This document shows, piece by piece, positions 8,444 to 32,052 of a stretch of 39,880 bases of DNA. Origin of the DNA: a virus (Duplodnaviria > Caudoviricetes); IMG/VR virus record IMGVR_UViG_3300032237_000346, positions 1 through 39,880 of that record. The stretch is one strand, 5' to 3'. A program made the position numbers and the translations under genes. Numbering within the stretch: the stretch's first letter is position 1; each line of letters begins with the position of its first letter. The notes below the pieces were generated by a model. That model was not told the origin of the DNA. It made no database searches and worked only from the letters and a program-made list of their open reading frames with translations.

Positions 8444-8549
8444 GAACAGCAGTGTACACGAATTTTAATTACATGCTTGTAATTCTTCTCGGCGTGTCTA
8501 ATTATAGAGCAGACTTCGTGTAGTAGTCTCCCCTATTGAAGGAGCAACA
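8444..8549. promoter_or_regulatory. Divergent promoter region with GACACGCCG motif and aattaca/tgtaatt inverted repeat
   Basis: cggcgtgtc at 8490-8498; -10-like TACACT (minus, about 8451-8456) and TAGTCT (plus, 8524-8529). Confidence 0.55.
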
Positions 8550-9386
8550 ATGACACTTGAACAAATAACAGGGAAGAACTACATCTCCCACTCCGCCATG
8601 TCAACATGGCTTGGGTGTGGATGGCAGTACTACCTCACTCGTGTGCAGCATGTGGCAGAGTCACCTTCCTACTGGCTTGCTGGTGGTAAGGCTGTACATG
8701 AGTGCACAGAAATCTATGACATCACACCTGAGGGTTTTGACCCAACGGCTATGTTTATAGAACGATGGAATCATAACTACAAACTGGTTGACAACGGTAT
8801 GCCTTGGCGTGCTGGTGGTCGTGCTACCAAGGCATATCCCAACAAGGAAGATGCTGACTGGTGGCTTGCCAATGGTCCGAAGATGGTTGACTTTTGGATT
8901 CAGTTCAGAGAAGAAAGTGGTTGGAAGATTTGGGAAACCCCCGTTGGCATCCCCGCTATTGAAACTGAAATGAATCAGACAGTCAACGGTGTAAACATTA
9001 AGGCGTTTCTTGACCGCATTATGGTTGCACCTACTGGCGAGTTAGTAATTGTAGATATTAAGACAGGTGCTGAGCCTAAGTCTCAGACACAACTTGGTAT
9101 CTATGCAGTACTGGTGGAGAAAACCTTTGGTGTTCGCCCACAACTTGGCAGTTATTTCATGGCACGCACAGGGGAACTAACAACTCCTGTTAGCCTTGAC
9201 CGCTTTACTGAATCACGCCTTGGCTCATGGGCTAAAGGCTTTGAGATAGCGGTAAGTAATAAAATCTTTATACCATCAACAGGGTTTATGTGTGGCACAT
9301 GCTCAGTAAACTCATCATGCTATGCAGTGGGTGGCAAAGACTCACATCTTTATCCAGAGATACCTATAGGAGAACCAAATGACTGA
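8550..9386 (+). CDS. Cas4/RecB-like PD-(D/E)XK exonuclease
   Basis: ISHS....WLGC, GKAVH, FLDRI, IVDIKTG, QLGIY, and C-terminal C..C.....C (Fe-S-type cysteines). Confidence 0.85.
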   Translation: MTLEQITGKNYISHSAMSTWLGCGWQYYLTRVQHVAESPSYWLAGGKAVHECTEIYDITPEGFDPTAMFIERWNHNYKLVDNGMPWRAGGRATKAYPNKEDADWWLANGPKMVDFWIQFREESGWKIWETPVGIPAIETEMNQTVNGVNIKAFLDRIMVAPTGELVIVDIKTGAEPKSQTQLGIYAVLVEKTFGVRPQLGSYFMARTGELTTPVSLDRFTESRLGSWAKGFEIAVSNKIFIPSTGFMCGTCSVNSSCYAVGGKDSHLYPEIPIGEPND

Positions 9387-12177: not shown

Positions 12178-12542
12178 TGGTAACACAGCAAGCAAGTAAC
12201 AAGCGTAGGGGCGCAGCATTTGAGATTGACCTAGCCGATTGGTTGATGGAGAACGGGTACAACGCACAGCGTTTACCTCGTGCTGGTCGCAATGACATTG
12301 GTGATGTTGCACTACCTACTGGCAACGACATCTATGTGATTGAAGCCAAGGCACCACGGCGTGACGGCAAGATAGATTTATCTGGGTGGATTCGTGAGGC
12401 ACAGATAGAGGCGGAGAACTACCGTATTGCTAAGCGATTGAAGATTGCACCTACGCCATTGGTTATTATCAAGGCATCTAACAAGGGGATTGAGGATGCT
12501 TATGTAGTACAAAGGCTCAGTGATGCTCTTGCAAAACTCTAA
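12177..12542 (+). CDS. Holliday junction resolvase (Hjc-type PD-(D/E)XK)
   Basis: KRRGAAFE..LA..L, DIGD, VIEAK. Confidence 0.8.
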   Translation: MVTQQASNKRRGAAFEIDLADWLMENGYNAQRLPRAGRNDIGDVALPTGNDIYVIEAKAPRRDGKIDLSGWIREAQIEAENYRIAKRLKIAPTPLVIIKASNKGIEDAYVVQRLSDALAKL

Positions 12543-12900
12543 GCATGACTTGGCAAAAGTACTAGAACATTACGGCTTTGACATACCGCAAGGTAAACGC
12601 GGGTGGGTGACTGTGCGCTGTGCCTTCCACGGTGATAGAGTAAAGTCTGCTCGTCTTAATACAGAAAACGGTGGGTTCAGATGCTTCGGCTGCGACATGG
12701 CTGGAGATGTGTACTCAATCATTATGAAGAAAGAAGGAGTGACTTTCAATGAGGCTAAGCAAATCGCAGAGAGAATTACTGGAGAGAGCAACGGAGACTT
12801 ACGCTCAAAACCTCGTGGAGATTCTTCCGTATCTGGAGAGTCGCGGTATAACGGAGGCAACGGCTCGTATGTTTCGCCTCGGCTTCGTAAAAAATCCTGA
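12520..12900 (+). CDS. DNA primase zinc-binding (CHC2) subunit
   Basis: CAFHGDRVKSA...FRCFGCDMAGDVY..I...EG..F.EA. Confidence 0.85.
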   Translation: MMLLQNSKHDLAKVLEHYGFDIPQGKRGWVTVRCAFHGDRVKSARLNTENGGFRCFGCDMAGDVYSIIMKKEGVTFNEAKQIAERITGESNGDLRSKPRGDSSVSGESRYNGGNGSYVSPRLRKKS

Positions 12901-13381
12901 GGTAGGACATGAGCCTTACATTGGTAAGTTATCTATTCCATACCTAACACCATCTGGAACTATTGACATACGCTTTCGTGCCTTAAGTCCTGATGCTGCT
13001 GGTCCGAAGTACATGTCAAGACCAGGGGCTACCACTCACATCTTTAACATCAACGCATTGAACAAAGATGATGACACACTAATCGTGTGCGAAGGTGAAC
13101 TTGATACTGTTGTTGCTACACAAGCAGGCTTTGCTGCAGTTGGTTTACCAGGTGCCAACAATTGGAAACCTTTTTACTCACGAGTACTTGCTGACTGGAC
13201 AAAAGTAATTCTGCTCTGCGATGGAGACAACGCTGGCAGGGAGATGGCTAAGAATCTAAGTAGAGAACTAGACAATGTATTCCCTGTGTTCATGCCTGAG
13301 GGTCAGGATGTTAACGATGTCTACCTAGCAGAAGGGGCAGACGGTTTGCGAAAGCGAGTCGGCGTGCTAATACATGGCTAA
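12749..13381 (+). CDS. DNA primase TOPRIM subunit
   Basis: YLESRGI, FRLG, PKY, VCEGELD, DGDNAG, GQDVND; has its own RBS aaggag. Confidence 0.88.
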   Translation: MRLSKSQRELLERATETYAQNLVEILPYLESRGITEATARMFRLGFVKNPEVGHEPYIGKLSIPYLTPSGTIDIRFRALSPDAAGPKYMSRPGATTHIFNINALNKDDDTLIVCEGELDTVVATQAGFAAVGLPGANNWKPFYSRVLADWTKVILLCDGDNAGREMAKNLSRELDNVFPVFMPEGQDVNDVYLAEGADGLRKRVGVLIHG

Positions 13382-13760: not shown

Positions 13761-14406
13761 CGAGAAAGATTTACTATGGGAACAGGTCTATAAAGTAGCA
13801 CGCTTATCTGCTGCTAGATGTACCCGTATTCATAGGCACTTAGTCACGGCTGATGATGTGTACCAACACCTTAACCTGTGGGCATTAGAACATTGGCACA
13901 AGATTGAGGAGTGGCAATCGCAAGACTCATTGGTATTTAAACTTAAGCGTACATTCAACAACGAGTCGCAGAAGTTTGCTGCTAAAGAGCGTGCCTATAA
14001 AACTAAGTCATCACCATCGGATGCTTTTTATTACACGCATGAGATTTTGCAGGAGTTACTCAAAGATGTGTGGAACTATGAGCAGTGGACAGTATCTTCA
14101 ACACCTAAAGATGATTTCATTTCTACCTCAAGCAAGCCAAGCGAAGGCATGAATCGTGAGGCTATGTTAAGTGATGTGTCTTTCTGTCTTAAGAAATTAA
14201 ATGAACAGGACAACCTGCTTCTACATCGTAGGTTTGCAAATGGTGGCACTGACATAGATGCATTGGCTATTGAGTACAACATTAGTGATGAGGCAGTACG
14301 CAAGCGTGTGTCTCGTGCACTTACCAAGTTACAAGATAGATTAGGTGGCGAACAACCACAATGGAATAACCGTAGATACCGCAAGCCAGACAGGAGTGAA
14401 GAATGA
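13753..14406 (+). CDS. RNA polymerase sigma-factor-like protein (region 4 HTH)
   Basis: ADDVYQ region-2-like segment; LNEQD..LL..RF...DIDALA.EYNISDEAVRKRVSRAL.KL region 4. Confidence 0.7.
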   Translation: MSDEKDLLWEQVYKVARLSAARCTRIHRHLVTADDVYQHLNLWALEHWHKIEEWQSQDSLVFKLKRTFNNESQKFAAKERAYKTKSSPSDAFYYTHEILQELLKDVWNYEQWTVSSTPKDDFISTSSKPSEGMNREAMLSDVSFCLKKLNEQDNLLLHRRFANGGTDIDALAIEYNISDEAVRKRVSRALTKLQDRLGGEQPQWNNRRYRKPDRSEE

Positions 14407-14564
14407 TTGATGTCTTAATAAATAAAATTAAAGATGCCTGTTATCACATACCTTCTGAGTTCTGTAAGTCCAATGAGATGATGAGTATTTACATTAAAGG
14501 TATTACCAATGGCAGAGAGCAAGCAATTAAAATACTGGAGGCAAGCAATGATACTAACTCATGA
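14403..14564 (+). CDS. Hypothetical 53-aa protein
   Basis: ATGA overlap, RBS caggag; translated by hand. Confidence 0.55.
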   Translation: MIDVLINKIKDACYHIPSEFCKSNEMMSIYIKGITNGREQAIKILEASNDTNS

Positions 14565-14673
14565 GTTTAACTGGAGAATGTTTTGTATTGGTATAGTGCA
14601 CTACAAGAATCTTAAATGCATTGAGGTTTACATCGGTCCACTTGCAGTAGGTATTTGGTGGGGTGTTAAATGA
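14548..14673 (+). CDS. Hypothetical 41-aa protein
   Basis: RBS ggagg; ATGA overlap with the kinase gene; translated by hand. Confidence 0.5.
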   Translation: MILTHEFNWRMFCIGIVHYKNLKCIEVYIGPLAVGIWWGVK

Positions 14674-15209
14674 TTATTGGATTGAGTGGATACGCACGCA
14701 GTGGTAAGGACAGCACCGCTGAATTGTTATGTCTTAATTACGGATACCGTAGAGTATCTTTTGCTGACCCAATACGCCATGCGTTGATGCAACTTAACCC
14801 AAAGTTAGATTCCATTGCACGCCTTGCTGAGTTTGTAGATGACTATGGTTGGGATGTAGTCAAGCAAAACCCTGAGGTACGCAGACTGATGCAGGTAATG
14901 GGCACTGAGGTAGGTCGCTCAATGTTTGGTGATGATGTGTGGATTAAGATGGCGCTTCGTGACTTAAGCCCTAACGATAGAGTTGTTATCTCTGATGTTC
15001 GTTATCCCAATGAGGCTAATGCAATCAAAGAATTAAGTGGTTCGCTTTGGCGTATCAACCGACACAATCACAGTGCAGTCAATGGTCACAAGTCTGAGCA
15101 CGCTATGGATAACTACATGTTTAATCATGTTATCTATAATGATGGAACTCTTGATGATTTAAGTGATGAAGTGTTCATGCTTGCTAAGGAACTTGACTTA
15201 GATAAATAA
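14670..15209 (+). CDS. Deoxynucleoside monophosphate kinase
   Basis: IIGLSGYARSGKD, SFADPIR, RRLMQVMGTEVGR, ISDVRYPNE, HKSE. Confidence 0.9.
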   Translation: MIIGLSGYARSGKDSTAELLCLNYGYRRVSFADPIRHALMQLNPKLDSIARLAEFVDDYGWDVVKQNPEVRRLMQVMGTEVGRSMFGDDVWIKMALRDLSPNDRVVISDVRYPNEANAIKELSGSLWRINRHNHSAVNGHKSEHAMDNYMFNHVIYNDGTLDDLSDEVFMLAKELDLDK

Positions 15210-15221
15210 TCTGCCTTAATA

Positions 15222-15310
15222 CATAGAGAAACCCAGCGAGACAGGAGAGAATCGCTGGGTCTTTCTATGCACACCAACCGCTACGCTTCCCCTTCGCAGT
15301 GGCTGGTGTA
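15222..15310. terminator. Two hairpins at the convergence of the replication and early transcripts
   Basis: catagagaaacccagcga/tcgctgggtctttctatg (15222-15269) and acaccaaccgct/agtggctggtgt (15271-15309). Confidence 0.7.
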
Positions 15311-15323
15311 CATGGCAAACCTA

Positions 15324-15665
15324 TCACCCAAGTTTTGGTTCTGTCAAAGCCCAGCCAATCCTTGCTCTAATCTTGTGGCGCATGGGTGGTGTCATCCCGC
15401 CCCACACCCCGTACCTTTCATGGGCTAAGCCCCATTCAAGGCAAGCCATCATGACTGGGCACTCAACACACATCTTTTCAAACATGCGCTCCTCGTCACG
15501 AGTGAACAACTCCTGTGCTGGGTAAAAAATCTCTGTGTCTATACCCTTGCACACAGCCTTGTCCCATAGCCGTTGGTTGTATCTTAAGACATAACCAATC
15601 AACCCCTTGTTGTATCTATTCTTGCTATGAGTAACGCTGGTTACTGTGTGGAACTGTGGCTTCAT
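15324..15665 (-). CDS. whiB: WhiB-family Fe-S transcription factor
   Basis: W..AVCKG.D.EIFYP, C..CPV...CLEW, YGVWGG.T...R. Confidence 0.93.
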   Translation of the reverse strand: MKPQFHTVTSVTHSKNRYNKGLIGYVLRYNQRLWDKAVCKGIDTEIFYPAQELFTRDEERMFEKMCVECPVMMACLEWGLAHERYGVWGGMTPPMRHKIRARIGWALTEPKLG

Positions 15666-15668
15666 GTC

Positions 15669-16112
15669 TTAATACCAACCCTTTGCTAAGTGATGTGCGT
15701 ATGCCTTGCAGATTGCGCCCTTGCCATAGTGCCTGTCAATGTATGCAAGCCCTGCATCTACCTGTCGGTAGCCGTTGCTCGTGGGTTTAATCTTAAGTAT
15801 CTTCCATGTGCGAGGCATGAGTTGGGCTATGCCCAGCGCATGACTTGACTTGTTCTTTGCTTGCGGTCGCCAGTTAGATTCCTCAGTCCACAATTCATAG
15901 AGACATGTGTACTGTTCTAAATCCCCTTGCTTCATCAACCTGTCAATGGCGTAGCGTTGGTAATCGTTCTGATAGTAGGCAATTATCTTGCCCTTTGGTG
16001 GTGATACAAACTGTTGTCCAGTTGGTGTCTTAAGAACTAAGATAAGTCCCAAGATAATTGTTGTAACAATCCATAACCTAGCGTGTGGGTGAATCAGTTT
16101 TAAGTTGAGCAT
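15669..16112 (-). CDS. Membrane-anchored lytic transglycosylase (SLT/lysozyme-like)
   Basis: N-terminal TM; EESNWRP.A, GIAQLMP, YI..HYG, GWY. Confidence 0.85.
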   Translation of the reverse strand: MLNLKLIHPHARLWIVTTIILGLILVLKTPTGQQFVSPPKGKIIAYYQNDYQRYAIDRLMKQGDLEQYTCLYELWTEESNWRPQAKNKSSHALGIAQLMPRTWKILKIKPTSNGYRQVDAGLAYIDRHYGKGAICKAYAHHLAKGWY

Positions 16113-16275
16113 CTAGTTCTGCCTCTGCCTTCTCATGTAGGTAAGTATCTATGGCTTTATTAGATAGTTCATTGTGATTTAATACACAAGCATCGCACAT
16201 CTCAAGCATGTAGTTAATAACCTTTGGGTTAATTACCATGATGTCGCACTTCAAACAAGGCATTAAGATTGTCAT
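16078..16275 (-). CDS. Hypothetical protein with two CxxC motifs
   Basis: CLKC...CDAC; overlapping operon arrangement. Confidence 0.6.
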   Translation of the reverse strand: MTILMPCLKCDIMVINPKVINYMLEMCDACVLNHNELSNKAIDTYLHEKAEAELDAQLKTDSPTR

Positions 16276-16517
16276 AACAACACCTTGCTGTGTGGCTCAG
16301 TGTTATCTAACTTAAGACAAAAATCATGTACTTCATCAAGCCAATCGGGTGATGTAATGAACCTGCCTTCCATGTCTAGCCATGTCAGTTCGTATCCGTC
16401 AAGGTCGTCCCAGTGCAGGATAACCCGTACTTCTTCGCCGTCAATGGTGAGGTCAAAGTCCTTGTCGTACGCTGTGGTTGCCTTGCTCATAGCCCCAGCC
16501 ATAATTGTGTGTGTCAT
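16272..16517 (-). CDS. Hypothetical acidic protein
   Basis: ORF track; abuts neighbouring genes. Confidence 0.65.
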   Translation of the reverse strand: MTHTIMAGAMSKATTAYDKDFDLTIDGEEVRVILHWDDLDGYELTWLDMEGRFITSPDWLDEVHDFCLKLDNTEPHSKVLL

Positions 16518-16655
16518 TTACTGTTCTCCCATCTCATCATGTAGTCGGTCGGGGTCATCTTCTCCGCAACTGCAATCAACCTTGTCACAATCTTCGCATG
16601 GTTGGTTGATACCCAGTGCTACATCATCTCCGTCTAGCCACATTGGTTCACTCAT
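16518..16655 (-). CDS. Hypothetical 45-aa acidic Cys-rich protein
   Basis: MSEPMWLDGDD...CEDCDKVDCSC..DPDRLHD; GACAGGAGA RBS; translated by hand. Confidence 0.65.
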   Translation of the reverse strand: MSEPMWLDGDDVALGINQPCEDCDKVDCSCGEDDPDRLHDEMGEQ

Positions 16656-16810
16656 TTGTTATCTCCTGTCTCAAGACATGCTGTCTCGGCTGTCCATTTG
16701 TTGTTTGTTTTATTTACTTTTTCTTCTGCTTTATCTATTGCATCTTGTTCATCTATTGCAGTAATTACTACTGTTTTAGTAGTGCTTAAAACTACATGAT
16801 ACTTTGGCAT
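16652..16810 (-). CDS. Hypothetical 52-aa protein
   Basis: MPKYHVVL...; GACAGGAGA RBS; translated by hand. Confidence 0.65.
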   Translation of the reverse strand: MPKYHVVLSTTKTVVITAIDEQDAIDKAEEKVNKTNNKWTAETACLETGDNK

Positions 16811-16968
16811 TACTTTTCTCCTGTCTTAAGTAATACACCTAGAGTTTCTAGGTGATGTTCCATTATGCCTTGCCAGTAGTCAAAGTCCTCGTTATTTGTA
16901 GTAGCGTTTCGCTGTGACCTTGCTCTCTTTATTGCGCTGTGTATTCTTTTAATCTGCTTGTCGCTCAT
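16810..16968 (-). CDS. Hypothetical 52-aa protein
   Basis: MSDKQIKR...LKTGEK; TAATG overlap; translated by hand. Confidence 0.6.
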   Translation of the reverse strand: MSDKQIKRIHSAIKRARSQRNATTNNEDFDYWQGIMEHHLETLGVLLKTGEK

Positions 16969-16971
16969 GTC

Positions 16972-17106
16972 TTAAGAACTAATCTCATACGACTGGCACA
17001 CCATCATTACAACATCGTCAAGTTTTGCTATCAAGTCTGATAGTTCTTGCTCGGTCAAGTGCTTGGTCATGCCTTTTGTAAGTGATGACTTCCATACATT
17101 AGCCAT
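16972..17106 (-). CDS. Hypothetical 44-aa protein
   Basis: Start MANVWK with gaggag RBS. Confidence 0.6.
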   Translation of the reverse strand: MANVWKSSLTKGMTKHLTEQELSDLIAKLDDVVMMVCQSYEISS

Positions 17107-17398
17107 TGCTTTTCTCCTCTGTCTTAAGTACTGACATGAGTGACTTAAGGTGGTCAAGTGCCTGTTGCTTGCGCTTGTAGTTAGTGCCCAGCATTTCGTT
17201 AGCCTTGCGTAGCGTGCTACCTTTGGCAGTCATCTTCATTCCTGTCTTAAGTTCTAACTCAATCCAACTGATGAGAGATAGCAGGATGTATAAGTCCACG
17301 CCTGACCCGCTTGCGCTGGTCATCTCTCCGTTCTCGTTGAATGTCATGTGGTTAGCGCCGTTGGTTAATGCTTCTAGTGTTTCTTCGGGTAGTGCCAT
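17099..17398 (-). CDS. Hypothetical protein
   Basis: Start MALPEE with GACAGGAGA RBS. Confidence 0.65.
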   Translation of the reverse strand: MALPEETLEALTNGANHMTFNENGEMTSASGSGVDLYILLSLISWIELELKTGMKMTAKGSTLRKANEMLGTNYKRKQQALDHLKSLMSVLKTEEKSNG

Positions 17399-17399
17399 G

Positions 17400-17681
17400 T
17401 TAGTTATCTCCTGTCTTGGTGTATTTGGTACGCAATTCATTGTCTTGATAGCAAGCATGGCATAGTGGAATGTCATCATCTATTTTTCCTTCTAGACACA
17501 TAGCCATGTCACAACCCTTACATTTTTTTATTGAGTTATCTTCTGTCTTAAGTAACAATTCGTTATTGAGTTTTGATTTGATGCTGTTGGTAAGTGTGTT
17601 ATCCCACATACCGCCGTTGTCGTTGATTGTTTTGTTGATTGAGTAGAGTACCCAGTCAATCTCTTGTGCTGTTAGTTTCAT
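17400..17681 (-). CDS. Hypothetical protein with C-terminal CxxC pairs
   Basis: GACAGGAGA RBS; directly downstream of a promoter. Confidence 0.65.
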   Translation of the reverse strand: MKLTAQEIDWVLYSINKTINDNGGMWDNTLTNSIKSKLNNELLLKTEDNSIKKCKGCDMAMCLEGKIDDDIPLCHACYQDNELRTKYTKTGDN

Positions 17682-17712
17682 TGTGTTTCTCCTGTCGTTA
17701 GTTGGTAGTTGT

Positions 17713-17767
17713 AGTTAATCGGTTGTGCTATCTGATGTCAAGCATTTGTTGTGTGATGTTGGTCACA
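17713..17767 (-). promoter_or_regulatory. Sigma-A-type promoter (TTGACA-17-TTAACT) with upstream CRP-type box
   Basis: tgtcaa 17736-17741, agttaa 17713-17718, TGTGAtgttggTCACA 17752-17767. Confidence 0.75.
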
Positions 17768-17774
17768 TTGTGTC

Positions 17775-17936
17775 TTAAGGCAGAGGGTATCCAGCAGGAC
17801 ATCCGATTTGCTCTACTAGACATGACTCGGATACATCCCACACACCTAGTGCGCTTGATACTCCGATGATTGCGGTAAGTATTAAGACATAAATAAAGAT
17901 TGCTCTGACCAGTCTGCCTCGGCGTGTTAGTTTCAT
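17775..17936 (-). CDS. Hypothetical 53-aa membrane protein (MKLTRRGRLVR...)
   Basis: LTRRGR plus TM helix; translated by hand. Confidence 0.65.
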   Translation of the reverse strand: MKLTRRGRLVRAIFIYVLILTAIIGVSSALGVWDVSESCLVEQIGCPAGYPLP

Positions 17937-18067
17937 TTGTTTACCTGCTTAGTCATAAGACTTGAAGCAATCAAACGCAAAATCTTTTTGTCGTGATTAC
18001 TTAAGACATAATCTTTTGCATGTTGGCATTGGTTGAGTGGGATTAGGCAGTCTCCGCAAATTGTCAT
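17933..18067 (-). CDS. Hypothetical 44-aa protein (MTICGDCLIP...C.H)
   Basis: ATGA overlap; translated by hand. Confidence 0.55.
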   Translation of the reverse strand: MTICGDCLIPLNQCQHAKDYVLSNHDKKILRLIASSLMTKQVNK

Positions 18068-18078
18068 GTCTTAAGTCA

Positions 18079-18333
18079 CTACCCTTCCAGCGTGTAGCAT
18101 TTAGGGCAGAGGGTGAGTCCGTTATCCTCGCGCTTTTGGTAGTTCTCTGTCCATTCTGAACAACTTTCGCACTCCTCAGCATCAACTTCTTCGCTGGCTG
18201 GGATGATTGAAAGTTGGGCGGTGAACTCTTGGAAGATTTCATCCGCTGTCATTTCATCGGCAGAATAAAACTCGTAGTTGATACTCTCGAAACTTGGCTC
18301 GTGAAGAATCTCTATGCTGTACTTGTGCGCCAT
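18079..18333 (-). CDS. Hypothetical acidic protein with C-terminal zinc ribbon
   Basis: Start MAHKY with gaagg RBS; CESC...CPKC. Confidence 0.65.
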   Translation of the reverse strand: MAHKYSIEILHEPSFESINYEFYSADEMTADEIFQEFTAQLSIIPASEEVDAEECESCSEWTENYQKREDNGLTLCPKCYTLEG

Positions 18334-18334
18334 G

Positions 18335-18523
18335 TTAGTTACCTTCTGTCTTAAGTTCGAAACCCATGTAGTAACCGTCTTTGATGTCGTTCCACATCCA
18401 TTTTTCTGCGTTGCTTGTCCAGCGCTCCACATCTACGGTTCGGCTGACTCCGTTCTGTGTGACTGTGTAGGTGGTGCCTTCTGTCGTGATTGTGTCCCCG
18501 TTAGGGTGTGTCCATGTTGCCAT
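18335..18523 (-). CDS. Hypothetical protein
   Basis: Start MATWTH with GACAGGAGA RBS. Confidence 0.65.
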   Translation of the reverse strand: MATWTHPNGDTITTEGTTYTVTQNGVSRTVDVERWTSNAEKWMWNDIKDGYYMGFELKTEGN

Positions 18524-18545
18524 TGTGCTGTCTCCTGTCGTGCTC

Positions 18546-18636
18546 GGTGGTGAGTATCTCTCGCCTACCTTGTGCCCTAATGGTGCCTTGCTCACCTCGT
18601 GCTCGTCAAGCATTTAGGGCTGTGATTTACATCACA
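18546..18636 (-). promoter_or_regulatory. CRP-type box + TTGACG + three-way junction + leader hairpin (element A)
   Basis: TGTGAtttacaTCACA 18621-18636; gccctaa/ttagggc stem 18574-18620; hairpin 18546-18569. Confidence 0.7.
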
Positions 18637-18650
18637 TTTTTTATTCTGTA

Positions 18651-18785
18651 TTAAGACACGCTCACAATTCTTACCGATTGCTTAAGGCTCTCGGCTATCT
18701 TGCGAAACTCTGCGAAGTTCTCCGCGCTGAGTGTGTTTTGAGATTCCAAACCGCTCCCGCTGTATAAGTTGAAAGTAATCTTCAT
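18651..18785 (-). CDS. Hypothetical 44-aa protein
   Basis: MKITFNLYSGSG...; ggaggtg RBS; ATGA overlap; translated by hand. Confidence 0.6.
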   Translation of the reverse strand: MKITFNLYSGSGLESQNTLSAENFAEFRKIAESLKQSVRIVSVS

Positions 18786-19159
18786 GCTGTCACCTCCGCT
18801 TCTGTCTTAATACCTAAGAACATTTGTTCTCCGTTGCTGTAAGTCCATTGGTTGGTGTCAGGATTCCAAAGGTAGAAATACTCCTCGCCTGCGTTAAAGT
18901 TTCGCACCCAATCGGTAGTGTCAAGAAAGGTGCGGGCGCTGTCGCTTGGTGTGCTGTATGCCCCCGCCTTGGTTTCTTCTATCGTGTCCATGAGTGCAGA
19001 AAATCCACCAAGGGCGATGAGTTGTTCTGCCTGTTCCTTGCTGTTGTAGTTCTGTATTAAGCCAGCACCTACCCCCTCAGGGTATCCGTCCCAGTGGCAA
19101 TAAATTGCCTTAACTGTGCCGTTTTGTGACTTAATACCGATAGTGCTTCTTGTTGCCAT
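18782..19159 (-). CDS. Conserved phage early protein (IYCHWDGYP family)
   Basis: MATRSTI...AIYCHWDGYPEGVG..L...EEYFYLW; GACGGGAGA RBS. Confidence 0.75.
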   Translation of the reverse strand: MATRSTIGIKSQNGTVKAIYCHWDGYPEGVGAGLIQNYNSKEQAEQLIALGGFSALMDTIEETKAGAYSTPSDSARTFLDTTDWVRNFNAGEEYFYLWNPDTNQWTYSNGEQMFLGIKTEAEVTA

Positions 19160-19182
19160 GTTTTTGTTCTCCCGTCTTAATA

Positions 19183-19275
19183 CATGAGCGAGGATTTCCC
19201 GCTTCATGTCGTGCCCTAATTGAGTCATGAACTCGCGCCCTCTGTCAAGGGTTTAGGGCTGTGAGTTGCCTCACA
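19183..19275 (-). promoter_or_regulatory. CRP-type box + TTGACA + three-way junction + leader hairpin (element B)
   Basis: TGTGAgttgccTCACA 19260-19275; stem 19213-19259; hairpin 19183-19208. Confidence 0.7.
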
Positions 19276-19289
19276 TTTTGGTTTTTGTC

Positions 19290-19598
19290 TTAAGCACTAA
19301 TCTTGAGCAACTTCTTCCAAGCCTCGTGCGCTATGTTCTGAGTCTCGTTGAAATCTAACTCGCTGAGTTCTGACTTAAGTAGTCGGCGGTTATACGCCTC
19401 ATCTGCTGAGGCTTGAGTTCCTCTGACCCATAGGGCGATAACTTTATTTCTTAATTCTGCGGGGATAATCTGCATTAAGTCATGAAATGACTCATGCTCG
19501 TCCTTCTGTGCTCGTATCTGCTGACTCATGCGCCATGTTGTAGGGGTTCCAAACCCTCCTTCTTGAGCCTCGTTCCATTGCTTACGGATTGCGTTCAT
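19290..19598 (-). CDS. Hypothetical protein
   Basis: GACAGGAGA RBS; 102 aa. Confidence 0.7.
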   Translation of the reverse strand: MNAIRKQWNEAQEGGFGTPTTWRMSQQIRAQKDEHESFHDLMQIIPAELRNKVIALWVRGTQASADEAYNRRLLKSELSELDFNETQNIAHEAWKKLLKISA

Positions 19599-19622
19599 AG
19601 TTCTGTTCTCCTGTCTTAAGTC

Positions 19623-19695
19623 ACAAGGTGAGACTCTCTCGCCTTGCTAGTGCCCCCGTTGGTCGTGAACCTTTGCCGACTTATCGGGCGGGGGC
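19623..19695 (-). ncRNA. Predicted three-way junction + leader hairpin (element C, no CRP box)
   Basis: gcccccg/cgggggc stem 19652-19695 with two inner hairpins; hairpin 19623-19647; same architecture as elements A and B. Confidence 0.55.
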
Positions 19696-19703
19696 TTTCT
19701 GTC

Positions 19704-19844
19704 TTAAGCCTTAACTTTTGAGATTTGGCGCTTGAGTTTCTTCTCTAACTTTTCGAGGCGCTGGCTTCTCTCGTCCCCGTGAGTGCCTACACTGTCGAAC
19801 TGAATCGCTGAGAGTATGTCGCGCAATTCTTTTTCTGTGAACAT
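19704..19844 (-). CDS. Hypothetical 46-aa protein
   Basis: Start MFTEKEL with GACAGGAGA RBS. Confidence 0.65.
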   Translation of the reverse strand: MFTEKELRDILSAIQFDSVGTHGDERSQRLEKLEKKLKRQISKVKA

Positions 19845-19912
19845 TTCTTCTCCTGTCTTAAGTAAGGGAGGGGGCGGGCTTTCCGCCCCTCTCCTTTCTT
19901 CTGTCTTAAGTC

Positions 19913-20554
19913 TTAAGCCTCCTTGAAGATTTCTTCGCATGTGTTGCAGGTCACACCGCTTTCAAGGACACCGCGAGAGAGGCGGATTACATTTTCACAT
20001 TCGCACATTGCCTTGATTAGGTTGGTGTTTCGTCCCTTAGGCTTGGCGGTTCCCTCGCCTGTCGCGGTAAGTTCTAGCGCCTTGGTGAGAATTGCAAGCG
20101 CCTTGCTCCAGCGCTTGGCTCCGAACTCGGTGAGCGTGGTGCTCGCGTGTCCCTTGCCCTTGATTTCCTCGGTCTTAAGACCTAACGCCTCGGCTTGTGT
20201 CTTAAATTTGGCGTTATGGTATTGGTTCGCGCTGCAATCTTGGATGCCGTTAGCGTGGTTGAGAGAGTGAGCAACCTCATGCAACAGGGTGCTCAATAGT
20301 TCTGCCCCTGTTGTGAAATGCTCAAGGTTGAAGGCAATCTCATGGAAAGATTCTGTCCCTGTTGTCCATGGGGTGTAAGGGGTGAAGTGTCCCTTGGCAC
20401 CCTTGAGGTTACGGGTCACGAGAATTGTGGCGCGGGGTGCGCCTGTTTCTGTCTTAATCAACTCGTGAGCCTGTTCTAACGCCTTGGTGAGGGTGCTTAG
20501 CGCCTCTGCCTTGCTTGCCTTGTTTCCTGTCTTAAGTGCTGTTGTTGCTGTCAT
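19913..20554 (-). CDS. SprT-like zinc metalloprotease domain protein
   Basis: TLLHEVAH (HExxH), YHN..FK..AE..GL, C-terminal CEC...CNTC. Confidence 0.8.
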   Translation of the reverse strand: MTATTALKTGNKASKAEALSTLTKALEQAHELIKTETGAPRATILVTRNLKGAKGHFTPYTPWTTGTESFHEIAFNLEHFTTGAELLSTLLHEVAHSLNHANGIQDCSANQYHNAKFKTQAEALGLKTEEIKGKGHASTTLTEFGAKRWSKALAILTKALELTATGEGTAKPKGRNTNLIKAMCECENVIRLSRGVLESGVTCNTCEEIFKEA

Positions 20555-20599
20555 TTCTTGATTCTCCCGTCATCGGCTTAAATCCTTGTGACTTAAGCA

Positions 20600-20673
20600 C
20601 TAGGAGATTTCTACACTACCTCCCGCCATGCCCTCAACATTTGGCGCCATTTGGCGGTGTGATTCTCATCACA
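20600..20673 (-). promoter_or_regulatory. First early promoter region with CRP-type box
   Basis: TGTGAttctcaTCACA 20658-20673, a tandem cgccaaatg duplication, then TTGAGG on the minus strand. Confidence 0.6.
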
Positions 20674-21029
20674 TTTTGGAAGTGAGCGTGAGCCTGAGCG
20701 TGTAAGCCTGTGCCGTCTCGCATAGTGAGACAGGCAAGCGAGCAGGCTCATGCTTCCCCGATGCCCCCCGCGATTAAGGGCTCGGCTGTTCTAGTAATAG
20801 CCCTCAAGCGAACTAGCCCAATCAAGCACACCAAGCAAGCAAGCAAGCAGACAGGGCGAGCATTTGCAGGGCTTGTTTATTAGGGGAGAGAATGACAATG
20901 AACGAACCCAGGGTTTTTAAATATGCGTGCAAGTATGTATATATGTATGTAGTCACATAAGTTTGATAGGGGAGGGTGGTTCTGACCAGCACTTTTAGTA
21001 CAGTGGCGTAGGTAACAAAAAATACTTTA

Positions 21030-21080
21030 AAATAAAGTGTCCAATTAGTGTCCTTTGGACACCTAATACTATAGTGTAGG
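21030..21080 (+). promoter_or_regulatory. Putative late promoter
   Basis: A/T tract, GTGTC at 21037 and 21048, GACAC at 21058, -10-like TATAGT 21070-21075. Confidence 0.5.
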
Positions 21081-21228
21081 GCTTTACATATTACGCCCTA
21101 CCGCTAAGCATTGGCAGCCCGAAGGCTGCCCCTACATTACGCCCTAACCTACGGCTTCCGCCTTGGGGCTACAGCCTACGGTTAGGAAAGGATAAACTGC
21201 GATTCTAACATAAAGCGGAATCGCTACT

Positions 21229-23097
21229 ATGCCTATGGAAACTAAAAGAGTTAACTCGCAAACTAAAAACGCCGATGCTATTAAAAAGCAAATTATAGAA
21301 TTTCTGATGGAGGGGTACTCCGTCCAAAAGGCGATGGATGCTGTCGGTCGGTCCGTTAAGACCTACGAATACTACCGCAAGACCGATGAGACATTCCGTA
21401 CCCAGATAGACAAAGTGCGGTCTATGACCGCCCGTGGCGAACTACAGACAGGTACCGTAGAGGTGCCACCGTTCCCAGAGTTTTCATCCAGATACCTTGG
21501 GGTAGAAGTCTTTACCCATCAAAAGCACTGGATTGATTTACTGGAGGGTACACCCCCCTCCGATATACACCCTAGCATCATCTATGAGCCTGGGGATAAA
21601 GATTTAATTATTGTTAATACACCGCCTGAGCACGCCAAGTCTACGACCATTACGGTCAACTACGCGCTCTACCAGATTTGCCGTAACCCTAACATCCGTA
21701 TCTTGGTGGTGTCCAAGACTCAGGCTATGGCGCAAAAGTTCCTGCTCTCCATTAAGAACAGACTCACCCATCCTCGTTATCAGGACTTACATCTTGCCTT
21801 TGGACCTCCAGGCGGCTTTGAAAAGAACTCTGATTCATGGAAGCAGGACTTAATTTACTTATCCTCAGAGGCTCGTAACTCTGGTGAAAAAGACCCAACA
21901 GTTCAAGCCATTGGTGTCCGTGGACATATCTACGGTGCTCGTGCTGACTTGATTATCATGGACGACTGTGTTGACCATACCAACGCCCATGAGTACGAAA
22001 AGCAGATTGACTGGATTCAATCCGAAGTTATGTCGCGTATTGACAATGACGGGGGTAAGTTACTTGTCGTAGGTACACGCTTGCGCCCAAGAGACTTGTA
22101 CTCAGAATTGCGCGACCCTATGCGCTACCCTGACGAGACATCCCCATGGACCTACTTTGCACAACCTGCGGTATTAGAATTTAAAGATGAATACAAAGAC
22201 TGGGTAACGCTCTGGCCGAAAACCAATATGCCACCCGTCTCGGGTAAAGGTACACCCGATGAGGATGGACTCTATACCAAGTGGGATGGTGAGGCGCTTT
22301 CTAAAAAGCGTAGTCGTATGTCTCCCAACTTGTGGGCAATGGTTTACCAACAACAACAGGTGCATGAAGATTCTGCTTTCCCTGCTGCAGCAATCAAGGG
22401 TGTCATTAACGGTGCCCGTAACATTGGTTTGATTCCAAAAGGTAAGGCAGGCAACCGACATGAAGGCATGGATGGTTTGGTCGTTGTGGCTGGACTGGAC
22501 CCTGCTATGTCTGGTTATACCGCTGCTGTCTGTATTGCTTTAGACATTGCAAGCCAGAAGCGTTATCTATTAGATGTGTCAAATGTACCTGGTATGAAAC
22601 CAGATGACATCAGAACTCTCATCAAAGACTGGACTGACAAGTACAAAATTTCTGAGTGGCGTGTTGAGAAAAATGCATTTCAAGCGATGTTGACTCAGGA
22701 CCGTGAGGTGCGGGAATACCTATCGGCTAGAGGTGCAACATTGCGTGAACACCATACAGGACAAAATAAATGGGACACGGACTTTGGTGTTGCATCTCTA
22801 ACCACTTTATTCCATGGGTACGAAGAAGGAAATAACTTAATTGAGTTTCCTTCAACTCATTCATCAGAAGGACTCAAGGCTCTTATTGAGCAGTTAGTTA
22901 CCTGGTACCCAGATGCACCCAAGTCACAAAAGACTGACTGCGTTATGGCTTTCTGGTTTACAGAACTTGCAATCCGTGACCGCATCAATAGTGCAAATGT
23001 TTATGCACGCAATCATAATCGTCAATCCATGTTCCATACACGGTATGACAAATCACAACAAGCAACAATTTCTTTATCCGATTTAATGACAATCTAA
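21229..23097 (+). CDS. terL: Terminase large subunit with N-terminal HTH extension
   Basis: PPEHAKST Walker A, GARADLIIMDD Walker B, VVGTR, YQQ, GLDPA nuclease, DCVMAFWF. Confidence 0.92.
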   Translation: MPMETKRVNSQTKNADAIKKQIIEFLMEGYSVQKAMDAVGRSVKTYEYYRKTDETFRTQIDKVRSMTARGELQTGTVEVPPFPEFSSRYLGVEVFTHQKHWIDLLEGTPPSDIHPSIIYEPGDKDLIIVNTPPEHAKSTTITVNYALYQICRNPNIRILVVSKTQAMAQKFLLSIKNRLTHPRYQDLHLAFGPPGGFEKNSDSWKQDLIYLSSEARNSGEKDPTVQAIGVRGHIYGARADLIIMDDCVDHTNAHEYEKQIDWIQSEVMSRIDNDGGKLLVVGTRLRPRDLYSELRDPMRYPDETSPWTYFAQPAVLEFKDEYKDWVTLWPKTNMPPVSGKGTPDEDGLYTKWDGEALSKKRSRMSPNLWAMVYQQQQVHEDSAFPAAAIKGVINGARNIGLIPKGKAGNRHEGMDGLVVVAGLDPAMSGYTAAVCIALDIASQKRYLLDVSNVPGMKPDDIRTLIKDWTDKYKISEWRVEKNAFQAMLTQDREVREYLSARGATLREHHTGQNKWDTDFGVASLTTLFHGYEEGNNLIEFPSTHSSEGLKALIEQLVTWYPDAPKSQKTDCVMAFWFTELAIRDRINSANVYARNHNRQSMFHTRYDKSQQATISLSDLMTI

Positions 23098-23115
23098 CAA
23101 AGGTAGGAGGTGAAC

Positions 23116-24942
23116 ATGGCGCTATCTATTGACGAAATCAAAGATACCTACGACCGTTATCGCCGTATGTACGATGAGCGTGACCAGAGAATGAATCAAG
23201 TTCTTTTGGTTCGTCAAGGCAAGATGCGTGATGTCTACCCAGATTTATTCCCCGATGGTCCTTTTGAGAATCCTATCGTTGCGAATATGGTGGATGTTGC
23301 AGCCCGCGACTTAGCAGAAACTATTGCACCGCTACCTGCGTTCAACTGTAACTCTACATCTATGGTGTCTGAGACAGTTCGCCGTAAGGCTGACAAGCGT
23401 GAAGAAATTGTTAACGGCATTGTTGACTTTTCTGATTTGCAATCACAGATGTTTAACGCTGCAGACCGTTATGTAACCTACGGATTTGTACCTGCACAAG
23501 TTGAAATTGACTACGAAGCACAGATGCCACGCATCCGTTTTATGGATTCAATTGGTTCATACCCTGTCATTGACCGCTTTGGTCGTTGCACAATGTTCTT
23601 CCAGCGCATTAACAAGCCAACTCAGGAACTGATGTCTCAGTATCCAGAGATTGCACACTTGATTTATGACAAGAATACACAGTCAACCATGTCTGAGGTT
23701 GTGCGTTTCCATGATGCAGACCAAGATGTTTTGTTCTTGCCTCAGCGCAGCAACCTTGTTCTTGACCGTGCTCCAAACCCAATGGGTGAATGTATGGTTC
23801 GCGTTGTACGCCGACCATCTATTGATGACCAATCACGAGGTCAGTTTGATGATGTATTAGCAATTCAAGTTGCTAAGGCTCGTTATGCGCTACTTTCTTT
23901 GGAAGCAGCAACCAAATCAGTACAGGCACCTATCGCAATGCCTCAGGATGTACAGGAGTTAGCCCTTGGACCAGATGCAATTATGCGTTCCAGCAAGCCT
24001 AATGAAATTCGTAGAGTACCGCTTGAACTACCTGCAAATACTTTCCAACAGCAGCATGTTCTTGAAAGCGAACTACGCTTAGGTTCACGCTATCCAGAGA
24101 CACGCACTGGTAATTCAGATGCTTCTATCATCACAGGTCGTGGTGTTCAGGCTCTTATGGGTGGTTTTGACACACAAATCAAAACAGCACATGCAATGTT
24201 TGCCCGTACATTTACAGAGTTGATGGCTTTAGCACTTAAGACAGATGAAAAAGTTTTTGGTAAGCAAGAAAAAACACTAGAAGGTATCTTCAATGGTACC
24301 CCGTACAACATTAAGTACAAGCCATCACGAGATATTGACGGCGATTACACAGTTGATGTGCAGTATGGATTGATGGCAGGACTTGACCCCAACCGTGCGT
24401 TGGTATTTGGTCTACAGGCTCGCGGAGATAAGTTGATTTCCCGTGATTTCCTACGCCGTCAGATGCCATTTAACTTCAATGCTACACAAGAAGAAGAAAA
24501 AGTTGAAACAGAAGAACTGCGTGATGCAATGAAGCAGGCTATTGCTTCGTATGCACAAGCAATTCCAGCACTTGCTTCACAAGGTCAAGACCCATCAGAC
24601 ATTTTAGTAAAACTTTCCACCGTAATTAGCGAACGCCAAAAGGGAACAGCAATTGAAGTTGCTATTCAAAAGGCGTGGGCACCACAGAATCCCCCTCCTG
24701 CTGCTACCCCTGCAGAAGTAAGTCCTCAAATGGGGCAACCAGGTGCGGTTCCAGCAGGTGCGGGGCAAGAACAACCAGGACAACTACCTCCAGGCTTAGC
24801 GCCTACAGGTCGTATGCAAGGTGTAGCAGCGGGACAATTAGCACCAGGCGGTCGTCCTGACATTCAATCGCTACTAGCAGGTTTAACCCAACGGGGAGAG
24901 CCTAATCTTCAGGCATCTCTTATCAAACGCTTACCCGCTTAG
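23116..24942 (+). CDS. Portal protein
   Basis: About 608 aa directly after the terminase; AGGAGGTG RBS; Pro/Gln/Gly-rich C-terminal tail typical of podoviral portals. Confidence 0.8.
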   Translation: MALSIDEIKDTYDRYRRMYDERDQRMNQVLLVRQGKMRDVYPDLFPDGPFENPIVANMVDVAARDLAETIAPLPAFNCNSTSMVSETVRRKADKREEIVNGIVDFSDLQSQMFNAADRYVTYGFVPAQVEIDYEAQMPRIRFMDSIGSYPVIDRFGRCTMFFQRINKPTQELMSQYPEIAHLIYDKNTQSTMSEVVRFHDADQDVLFLPQRSNLVLDRAPNPMGECMVRVVRRPSIDDQSRGQFDDVLAIQVAKARYALLSLEAATKSVQAPIAMPQDVQELALGPDAIMRSSKPNEIRRVPLELPANTFQQQHVLESELRLGSRYPETRTGNSDASIITGRGVQALMGGFDTQIKTAHAMFARTFTELMALALKTDEKVFGKQEKTLEGIFNGTPYNIKYKPSRDIDGDYTVDVQYGLMAGLDPNRALVFGLQARGDKLISRDFLRRQMPFNFNATQEEEKVETEELRDAMKQAIASYAQAIPALASQGQDPSDILVKLSTVISERQKGTAIEVAIQKAWAPQNPPPAATPAEVSPQMGQPGAVPAGAGQEQPGQLPPGLAPTGRMQGVAAGQLAPGGRPDIQSLLAGLTQRGEPNLQASLIKRLPA

Positions 24943-31600: not shown

Positions 31601-31648
31601 GAACAATTTATTAACCGTTACTTCGCAAATGATTCGGTGGTGCTTTAA
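25667..31648 (+). CDS. Very large internal virion (ejection/polyvalent-like) protein with possible ADP-ribosyltransferase-like motifs
   Basis: 1993 aa, mostly helical; DPLT motif; YHGS...A.RYA and GYG.LVV...DIIFP segments. Confidence 0.65.
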   Translation: MSWFNSLGKMAKGVADLTGIAGLYHDLSTSMSNDDPWYVDSLNVAKDIGKIGTTPVRLAVKGVLAAGEKSYELGGVARQAIEKGILDTPLMYNKFKNQGESYDDYKMRVEANKEQISLGQASLSLLSPGKNSADRSGYFQDWTDNHLRFLSAGFDLFNPEDRKAAFQDQYTGKFLSGMEDVVASTVIDPLTFTGFLGKGAVIASKATMLDNVNGRVARAVFGKLAMTPQKVDEIVAQGVKGEGPAARDLQYLAETDAADQAGYWAKKKVTNPDAMAFLFGRAKTVEEVGEVFSAITGKNTKAMAALAERDPQSGLVVEKFIDGPSHAERQLLNGQLEGDILVSQEHNAAIADYVTDLINTDTRYASAMEKVATGGTQLKYGFERGPMAGRSIKAGQKQAARTFGEPIIETFQKTSLHPVIKVVNYFREDLPSGVFNVNDGNSFQEFNTFLREVNDLSGRTFGPKARELADKYLISASEAERKEIINLAEQTALGHLFPQYSKDEIDKLYALFDSRRATAIAKHKDQGFISYFVGDTIQHAVAPILNREAANTVIIADMRKLKYAIDAHEGSLKTLLSGIDTQDLALRGQKGLAAIDTINDVFKTSVLMRLGYTVRNLTEAQLSMAAKGFALPGMALANGKEGLTRFFNNRKTGFSRLGDHVNVLLGRADDAKVLNDEVGRYVDALRNDDMTLNQMVKHINQRLGELLDSRTGFKERPGAQLTPEGMKPLVVEDEVKLLLGALSDLESKVTYHGSPGKFNLDKTRPVATSGVKSIADRYAEGGMIASIEQYIPTKTGKPGKLGNVDAEAAYAKVNAIQKNISQAERDLAKTGETQWDIPLLKQTLTEANAAYKKALSSATSAEKRTDVLNEAMLKLQSDMIDAVNAGKKVEIKKGSTWQRVKAIDYKTLVLALEGDEFETVLFKDWTHRPVFRVGYKEGKSTQIRSYGKALHLTQKAQRDLVQANPPVSINGRMQETAYTPAGTVGSWRNLPEELKTEVFENKVSNFSSWLKTKGWQEKDDAVTRWAKDNGYGSLVVSDDARAGGRSDIIFPESIDDAGRARQVKQYLKSIEQGNLPLMQADVAAEFEAANMTPKERRLASRASRKRARSGIRDNAVSPYYLQDGLQAMINNGIEDAAANIARSKAESLAALDDAVTRLGARIDVAETNAVKQRIGYGYQTIDAGGHTYQLPKAYQDATWFMSRASAEGTWNNQVANQEMAFLTGIGSRSVRLIQPNDPRYFEGWANILNMHFRDPETGVMDAVVRQVLDNKSDDEILKWFHTREGQRYANETYTQPGKYFGFHKVSSGEMDEKLIERLNITRGAVKAYIPDAETELMLSSAKPDGRPLSGGEVQKFLTERFASTPEKLTPLNGLLVVTSKEYKDQERIIDTINRRVMRFLGSLPEDVFARHPLAAAMYDKQLEANIKAIARVKGKEELTVNELNRAVTHARETSRQEVEKTLFTIVRRSGASSSRVVKLLFPFYAAYENTLRRWGGMIAEDPTLLATAGRTIAQVVHGQTIIDQNGNRITDATKLEGGASANLVVRVPQQFIDNLPKSWRGVVQDSFKNLNIPLNSLDVITQGQPGNPGLGPFAVLPAYLVLKERPELEDALKVFFPVGMPQKASDLFLPSALRRLSTVWNKDDLYVRSYNQMLSYEMYNYRQGKRSDVPTVAEITARTNKFYFLRALTSISAPFAVAPEVDFYAQTYRQFQQQYADYRDPQTGKRVLGMADAKFLEMYPDFFEATISKSKNEGKLEASLGTVRNLRKFSNLMAKAQSSGDSELLGFLANDGDNQYTFSQAAYQWQYKHGATPGSGSTYRQNRTANELLIEAEVKRGWTEFQNVMGQLSAYQKQNGIQEGDPEMAIVKAIKAEFVNQMKTTNLNWYSAYISPDKAKYERRAQILEAAFKDKKWMAQNGDRAVVKQALVYLDGRKQFAAILKERDAAGGSGTLNAKSNADVAQVYQMFVDELTNGSPEFEQFINRYFANDSVVL

Positions 31649-32052
31649 TGACAACTCCTGTGGAAAAGGGTGCAGCAGCAATGGGTGATTCCACTGTTAA
31701 AAATCCTAACAAGGCATCAACTGGCTTTGATTTTGTTGCAGCATTTAAAAAGGCTCAGTCAACCCTTGGCAATACATCAGCAAGTGGTCCTGTCTTTACA
31801 AAGCAAGAAGCAGACTATGCGGTTCAATCTGTCTATCAGCAATTGCTTGGTCGCAATGCTACAGGTAACGATTACTCAAAAGCAATCAATCTTGTTATGA
31901 ATCAATCACAAGGTAACTCAGTTACTGCTCGCCAGCAGGCTCTCACCAATGCACTTATGCAATCACCTGAGTACAAGATAAAGCAAGATAATAAGTATCT
32001 TGATGTTATCTATCAGTCAGTTGCCAATGATGTCAGAAACGCGCAGGCATAA
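31648..32052 (+). CDS. Putative internal virion protein
   Basis: VYQQLLGRNAT...LMQSPEY helical motif; TAATG overlap. Confidence 0.6.
   Translation: MTTPVEKGAAAMGDSTVKNPNKASTGFDFVAAFKKAQSTLGNTSASGPVFTKQEADYAVQSVYQQLLGRNATGNDYSKAINLVMNQSQGNSVTARQQALTNALMQSPEYKIKQDNKYLDVIYQSVANDVRNAQA

Follow-up and report, generated by a model that had tools for sequence, protein, structure and literature searches.

The hairpin that follows whiB in the window, the whole 39,880-nucleotide stretch of viral DNA analyzed here, is probably the terminator end of a separately promoted RNA of about 90 nt, whose loop would pair with nine ribosome-binding-site (RBS) tags before early genes and likely block their translation. 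An array of tags before early start codons, a single reverse copy of the tag in a conserved stem-loop, and loops and tags that change in step between lineages were observed. Because the two co-vary among related phages, a small RNA that turns down a whole set of genes is the likely explanation, and the predicted pairing of loop and tag is well supported by this co-variation. From the sequence, it is predicted with high probability that the RNA has a promoter, that the early strand is the one at work and that loop and tag pair as RNA, and repression by occlusion of the 30S subunit is, by analogy with known anti-RBS RNAs, quite likely. The purpose is the least certain part; most likely, a stable RNA would accumulate relative to short-lived early messages, and early synthesis would be pulsed or capped.

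In the proposed mechanism, a stable RNA would be transcribed from its own promoter at the whiB stop codon, and its loop would pair via 9 nt over the Shine-Dalgarno (SD) sequence or spacer of tagged messages. This pairing would exclude the 30S subunit, as the chaperone-free, C-rich 6C loops are described to do in Actinobacteria in the consulted excerpt of PMC6486639. Accumulation of the RNA would render early synthesis pulsed, or capped as genome copies rise. The untagged early genes, whiB and the transglycosylase gene that precedes it, would be spared.

The virus record is complete, at 39,880 bp with terminal repeats, and encodes a WhiB protein, a sigma-70 region 4 protein, a glycosyltransferase, a dNMP kinase, a terminase and a capsid protein. 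The capsid protein is 67% identical to those of the cultured Planktophila phages E7 and F5 (PMC10202952, cited from an excerpt); together with the gene content, this identity points to a freshwater actinophage and, indirectly, to its host. Megablast of positions 14000-24000 against cultured phages returned no match. No integrase, repressor or antirepressor family was detected among the 62 proteins scanned, and many early ORFs matched no family. The early block comprises about 20 small genes on the minus strand, from 20554 down to whiB (15324), and converges on the replication arm, whose last gene, the kinase, ends at 15209.

A shared tag precedes nine early start codons

The sequence GACRGGAGA matched the genome exactly at 10 positions, compared with 0.36 expected, and at least 10 matches were reached in 0 of 100 shuffles. 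Nine copies lay on the minus strand (seven GACAGGAGA and two GACGGGAGA), and all nine were 4-8 nt upstream of an ATG that opens an ORF of 45 to 213 codons. The single plus-strand copy was the hairpin loop. Two further early starts carried near-tags (Table 1). Among 40 plus-strand starts tested, the only strong match preceded ATG 14403; it pairs as well as the early tags and is not conserved.

Four TGTGA-N6-TCACA boxes, which we take to be CRP-like, were found on the minus strand (20658-20673, 19260-19275, 18621-18636 and 17752-17767), each followed by TTGAC or TTGAG, and are likely activator-dependent early promoters. The first gene downstream of every box with its hexamer is tagged, which accounts for four of the nine tagged genes. 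Strong minus-strand hairpins at 19870-19890 and at about 19625-19700, directly before the tagged starts 19844 and 19598, are possible internal terminators or processing sites.

Part of the GACA of the tag stems from a separate genome-wide word, TTAAGAC. This word occurs in 53 copies across the window, is densest at 15600-20600 and is mostly oriented with transcription; in relatives with loop types B, C, D and F (see below), GTTTAAAC replaces it at 14-18 copies per 5 kb. The possibility that GACA is a mere by-product of TTAAGAC was rejected, as 123 of the 280 distinct tag sites found in relatives do not have the TTAA prefix. Lineages without the word still have GAC-containing tags. The preliminary description of this hairpin had held that the match extends beyond the SD core into GACA; this stands, with the qualification that TTAAGAC supplies part of the GACA.

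Table 1. Positions of the tags, the predicted RNA and neighboring features in the window
Feature	Position	Strand	Remark
Tag GACGGGAGA, SprT-like gene (ATG 20554)	20563..20571	-	First gene after putative early promoter
Tag GACAGGAGA, ATG 19844 (46 aa)	19849..19857	-	
Tag GACAGGAGA, ATG 19598 (102 aa)	19607..19615	-	
Tag GACGGGAGA, ATG 19159 (125 aa)	19168..19176	-	First gene after putative early promoter
Tag GACAGGAGA, ATG 18523 (62 aa)	18531..18539	-	First gene after putative early promoter
Tag GACAGGAGA, ATG 17681 (93 aa)	17688..17696	-	First gene after putative early promoter
Tag GACAGGAGA, ATG 17398 (99 aa)	17407..17415	-	
Near-tag carrying an insertion, ATG 17106	17113..17123	-	Duplex -13.9 kcal/mol
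Tag GACAGGAGA, ATG 16810 (52 aa)	16817..16825	-	
Tag GACAGGAGA, ATG 16655 (45 aa)	16662..16670	-	
Near-tag GATGGGAGA, ATG 16517	16525..16533	-	Duplex -12.4 kcal/mol
whiB, last early gene, untagged, contains putative promoter	15324..15665	-	Stop codon 15324-15326
-35-like hexamer TTGACA	15342..15347	-	Within last whiB codons
Extended -10-like element TG-A-TAGGTT	15318..15326	-	Overlaps whiB stop codon, 18 nt after -35
Predicted 91-nt small RNA, two abutting hairpins	15221..15311	-	5' end deduced from -10 element, 3' end from U-rich tract
Hairpin 1, purine-rich loop AAGGGGAAG (15286-15294)	15269..15311	-	Absent or altered in many lineages
Hairpin 2, terminator-like, inner 11-bp stem (15229-15262)	15222..15269	-	A-rich 5' tract; U-rich 3' tract (15221-15231)
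Anti-tag loop UUCUCUCCUGUC	15240..15251	-	CUCUCCUGUC invariant in 24 distinct stems
dNMP kinase, final gene of convergent replication arm	14670..15209	+	
8-nt tag match, 53-aa ORF (ATG 14403), replication arm	14389..14396	+	

The reverse copy of the tag lies in a conserved terminator-like hairpin

The hairpin and its loop lie where they had first been placed, about 55 nt past the whiB stop codon, and the reported 9-nt antisense match to the early RBS was confirmed: the loop is the only reverse GACRGGAGA of the genome, facing nine tags at starts. The sequence CTCTCCTGTC occurs once in the complete genome, and hairpin loops closed by at least 11 contiguous pairs hold just 80 of the 39,880 minus-strand 9-mer positions. 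The 9-nt duplex of loop and tag was computed at -14.5 kcal/mol.

Relatives were collected under 208 locus ids, with many contigs present twice (236 loci including repeats), and of 237 sequences, window included, 231 contained whiB. Downstream of whiB, 231 of 231 loci (228 by script and three by eye) have a terminator-like hairpin whose long loop is rich in pyrimidines; these loci collapse to 124 distinct elements. At least five U residues followed within 8 nt past the stem in 114 of the 124. Among 24 distinct stems of the loop type found in the window (type A), 264 of 264 cells were paired, both sides had changed at 8 of 11 pairs, and the loop columns and CUCUCCUGUC were invariant; because the alignment was centered on the loop, register shifts account for some of the double changes, and the sequences are related to one another.

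A promoter-like site accompanies the hairpin

A promoter-like site, defined as a TAnnnT hexamer together with TGn, or with TTG 16-19 nt upstream, and anchored at the whiB stop codon, was present in 122 of the 124 distinct elements, compared with 34 of 2,234 other stop codons (1.5%). In the window it reads TTGACA-18-TAGGTT. Given this frequency, the element is probably a separate RNA of about 90 nt and not merely the 3' end of an operon. The predicted 91-nt RNA folds at -51 kcal/mol (z -7.2), compared with -42.1 for the opposite strand; the 48-nt hairpin of the window folds equally on both strands. At the level of sequence, signals for an own promoter and an intrinsic terminator, as in trans-acting base-pairing small RNAs, are present. 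The RNA is probably transcribed from a promoter of its own at the whiB stop codon and need not be processed from the end of the early operon, and read-through from that operon may add to it. To our knowledge, no Hfq is to be expected in the host.

The element had at first been read as a multi-target antisense RNA formed by the 3' end of the early operon. Under this explanation, a read-through or processed end, comparable to OppZ and CarZ, would exert negative feedback, the promoter-like site would be incidental, and the convergent transcript would act as a sponge; at the targets, the RNA would act just as in the explanation preferred here. At 231 of 231 loci, the element does lie behind the final early gene and in its orientation. 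Further, in 84 of 120 relatives the distance to the kinase stop codon is at most 60 nt, U-rich tracts flank the hairpin on both sides, and in the cluster BF phages described below the hairpin closes the tagged block. However, the rarity of the promoter-like site at other stop codons argues against an incidental occurrence. In 4 of 120 relatives the hairpin is intact and is shielded from the replication genes by an additional plain terminator, and in phages E7 and F5 the loop precedes the replication operon. We therefore consider an operon end unlikely. The multi-target anti-tag loop of the preliminary description stands, since it co-varies with its targets, but its source is probably a separate RNA, and the timer proposed there would be one possible role; titration by the convergent transcript, also proposed there, is possible in the window but is not required, given the shielded hairpins and the different location of the loop in E7 and F5.

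Loop and tag change together between lineages

The 124 elements were grouped by loop into type A (UCUCCUGUC; 59 elements), type B (CCAGUC; 43), type C (two seeds, CCUUUCGUC and CCAGUC; 16) and the minor types D and G (two each) and E and F (one each). The lineage comparison used the 106 of 124 elements with an early arm of at least 2 kb, and 18 were dropped. Between lineages, a change of loop was accompanied by a change of early tag (GACAGGAG, GACTGG, ACGAAAGG and others). In these counts, which come from related sequences and so are not independent events, GACRGGAG was found before starts in 51 of 51 type A genomes (303 of 308 copies) versus 5 of 40 type B genomes, and the density of GACTGG before starts was 3.28 per 5 kb for type B versus 0.26 for type A. 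The tag ACGAAAGG was found before starts in 13 of 13 type C and 3 of 51 type A genomes, and in 16 of 40 type B genomes despite their non-matching loop. The single D and the single F genome each carry their own tags, with types D, F and G resting on one or two genomes each.

In a tree of three proteins covering 114 of the 124 elements, type A formed one clade within B, C arose within B, D and G fell within C, and F lay beside B. These placements indicate several separate changes of loop. The same dependence was seen at orthologous genes. A gene whose product starts with MCGI carried GACTGG in 39 of 41 distinct contexts; the two exceptions were the D and G lineages, the loops of which lack CCAGTC, and each exception matched its own loop over 11-13 nt. 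In the PTAREQF family, the tag was GACAGGAGA in type A and GGACTGGA in type B. In a blind test, the type G loop of locus L120 predicted the tags of L262, a sequence fetched later with a 98% identical whiB: three tags of 10-11 nt, GACAGAAAGG(A) and CGATGAAAGGA, preceded three starts in L262, and the tags of types A, B and C were absent. Thus, the check first proposed for the relatives, whether the loop varies with the early RBS of each genome, was borne out by the comparison of lineages, by orthologous genes and by one blind test. Like trans-acting small RNAs, the predicted RNA combines a conserved structure with a single-stranded seed whose sequence follows that of the targets.

The match was not uniform. 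Type B loops with GGTACC matched just 7-8 nt at 1-3 starts, and the short loci L195 and L212 gave no loop match before any ATG. Only 25 of 59 single-base tag variants were G-U compatible. Two contigs without early arms, L023 (type E, at about 610-650) and L271 (at about 290-330), have loops complementary to GAAAGGACTAAC and GAAAGGACTAG. One other pattern match, L249, was rejected as an unrelated start site.

A common protein would equally yield co-variation. Tag and loop could be sites of one protein, be it bound at a DNA operator, an RNA-binding repressor or a RegB-like nuclease with a decoy hairpin; changes in the specificity of the protein would then drive the co-variation, and the hairpin would be an ordinary two-way terminator. 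The loop of the plus-strand hairpin displays the sense tag, folding in this genome is equally good on that strand, and repeated DNA words exist in these phages. Outer stem positions 12-17 of type A also favor the plus strand (26 A-C versus 9 G-U on the early strand), a bias that would follow from a second role of the hairpin as terminator of the convergent transcript, and just 20 of 40 non-A elements folded better on the early strand. In contrast, the inner stems carry G-U pairs on the early strand only, with 36 G-U and 0 A-C in type A and 28 G-U and 0 A-C in the other types (64 and 0 together). Two-seed loops match two unrelated tags that change with them, which would require two proteins to change in step. 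Further, tags occur only in sense orientation before starts, and 248 kb of early-arm sequence from type A contained 0 antisense copies. A single protein that recognizes both the tag and the loop is thus improbable, and pairing between loop and tag on the early strand remains the preferred reading.

Hairpin 1 may protect the predicted RNA

The hairpin-1 loop, AAGGGGAAG, is retained in loop types A, B and F, with several losses, and does not co-vary with loop 2. No conserved phage mRNA target was found for it; the exonuclease leader motif described below occurs with or without loop 1. A kissing interaction of loops 1 and 2 (-8.4 kcal/mol in the window) was rejected, as loop 1 is constant while loop 2 changes. 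Hairpin 1 may protect the 5' end of the RNA.

Since this loop is SD-like, the RNA could instead be an adaptor that aids translation of tagged messages or stabilizes them, with hairpin 1 binding the 30S subunit and hairpin 2 holding the message. Retention of the loop in three types and its pairing with what we take to be the 16S 3' tail (-8.4 kcal/mol) are compatible with such a role. However, the pairing of hairpin 2 with the tag would cover the SD sequence or spacer itself, and hairpin 1 is missing or differently looped in many lineages; an adaptor is very unlikely. Chance, or a generic anti-SD loop directed against host messages, is hardly credible: UCUCCU also complements the common SD core, but the seed tracks the tag of each lineage, including letters outside the SD core (GACTGG), and it passed the blind test.

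Cultured phages share the layout

In the Planktophila phages E7 and F5, GACAGGAG precedes 6-7 early starts, and an 18-bp stem immediately upstream of the exonuclease, the first gene of the replication arm, displays UACUCUCCUGUC in E7 and UACCCUCCUGUC in F5. These type A anti-tag stem-loops lie at 31633-31688 (plus strand) of L252 and 32681-32736 (minus strand) of L253. Three sites in the replication arm are tagged as well, and the loop there may therefore also act in cis. The exonuclease frame of E7 ends after 61 codons.

In the four Streptomyces cluster BF phages examined, GGGAGAG was present at 7-8 of the 11-14 starts that lie upstream of a hairpin; the stem of this hairpin varies and its loop reads UG(C/A)CUCUCUCC. 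The region matches 29 records. A tag array GGG(G)AGAGA and one anti-tag hairpin with a co-varying stem were noted for L254 (38037-38138, minus strand), L255, L256 and L258.

Start-associated sequences (SAS) of Cluster K mycobacteriophages provide a third case. The lone reverse SAS of Adephagia, noted by Pope et al. in the part of PMC3203893 drawn on here, was found at 58682-58694 in the loop of a hairpin that is preceded by a -10-like TAGACT and by one other hairpin. According to an excerpt of a 2024 RNA-seq paper (PMC11373665), late transcription of Adephagia starts between genes 92 and 93, which is the interval that holds the anti-SAS loop. Validus, Niklas and Curiosium fold like Adephagia, and LilPharaoh retains the motif unpaired. 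Throughout Cluster K, the TAGACT element is followed by a conserved multi-hairpin non-coding region (L237 33590-33730; Adephagia 58589-58729; 147 matching records), the second hairpin of which carries the anti-SAS in K1 and another sequence in K3.

No anti-SAS loop was found in Pixie (25-61 kb), TM4 (22-53 kb) or AnnaSerena (10-57 kb), despite their SAS arrays, or in the local stretch of ShedlockHolmes and Nergal. Amohnition and Shandong1 have C-rich loops without an exact match. The anti-SAS loop was rejected as a universal explanation of SAS, being missing from these stretches of Pixie, TM4, ShedlockHolmes, Nergal and AnnaSerena. The predicted RNAs of the cultured phages have the same layout as the window element; this likeness may or may not reflect homology.

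Comparison with known systems

The published systems below are compared on the basis of excerpts of the cited papers. SAS of Cluster K mycobacteriophages and Microbacterium cluster EF (PMC3203893, PMC7302621, PMC11373665) are likewise an over-conserved RBS tag of non-structural genes; those of K1 phages have a single reverse copy, as here, and an RNA or protein partner has been proposed. The window tag shares the features by which SAS were defined (PMC3203893), being an asymmetric repeat before non-structural starts, in one orientation, conserved past the SD core and with a lone reverse copy. However, its letters, GACRGGAGA, differ from the 13-nt Cluster K or EF consensus, and K2/K3 phages and AnnaSerena are without such a loop in the stretches read.

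The c4 RNA of P1 and P7 (RF01695; PMC12197685, PMC2864571, PMC8201110) is also a phage RNA with a loop antisense to sequence near an RBS that blocks translation, and changes in its sequence underlie P1/P7 heteroimmunity. Predicted fold and tag positions give the window element a comparable antisense loop against ribosome-binding regions. In contrast, c4 controls one antirepressor operon of temperate phages, whereas the window loop faces about nine scattered early starts in a genome where no integrase or repressor was found, and no antirepressor (icd-ant) target was present among the 62 proteins scanned. The RF01695 model gave no match in 14900-21300 (E up to 5) or in 11 related loci (gathering score).

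The 6C (B11) small RNA of Actinobacteria (PMC6486639) has two stem-loops with open, pyrimidine-rich loops and acts on many mRNA targets without a chaperone, which indicates that such a mechanism can work in this phylum. It differs in being host encoded with generic C-rich seeds, whereas the window seed is private to the phage and changes with its targets; loop 1 is G-rich, loop 2 is UUCUCUCCUGUC rather than C runs, and there was no match to the Rfam family. OppZ and CarZ of Vibrio cholerae (PMC7398697) are likewise operon-end RNAs that pair with the message of their own operon and inhibit translation. They are cut by RNase E and address one operon, whereas the predicted window RNA has its own promoter-like site and several target operons. 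The position of the latter RNA would fit such processing, but primary transcription is favored by the conserved promoter-like site. T4 RegB (PMC1702504) also shuts off early messages through a motif in the SD region, but is a protein that cuts GGAG, whereas an RNA partner is predicted here and no nuclease was identified.

A search of Rfam returned just a weak microRNA-precursor match far below the cut-off and a tRNA, and no family fits the element. No description of a phage RNA addressing a tagged early regulon was found in the literature searched, which covers few subscription journals. The window element is real and conserved; it would resemble c4, 6C and OppZ/CarZ in its working, but matches no Rfam family.

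A possible address system of actinophages

Early shut-off in model lytic phages is known to be the work of proteins such as T4 RegB. One phage RNA that addresses the early gene set through a tag written by the phage itself would be an RNA version of this protein switch, here in phages of very abundant freshwater bacteria. More tentatively, many actinophages may possess a private address system, in which an RBS tag marks early genes and one RNA key silences all that carry it. Effects on timing and superinfection would be expected if this is true: the key would time early expression and would also silence the early genes of a superinfecting phage with the same tag. Tags and keys would diverge as lock-and-key pairs, with two-seed loops covering two tags. 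The address system would also be the long-sought function of SAS, a question since 2011 (PMC3203893) and, in the 2024 excerpt, still ill-defined (PMC11373665), which would become directly testable; the same layout in phages that grow on laboratory hosts makes the idea testable. Natural loop-tag pairs are candidate orthogonal regulators for Actinobacteria.

Other features of the replication arm

The primase of the window is split over two overlapping plus-strand frames, with the zinc-finger part at 12520-12900 and the catalytic part at 12749-13381. The exonuclease that opens the replication arm has a conserved structured leader at 8490-8552 (plus strand), of the form GGCGTGTC ... CTCCTCTATTG ... 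AAGGAG ... ATG, which is possibly a middle promoter joined to an SD-sequestering switch. The leader motif is kept in nearly all relatives listed.
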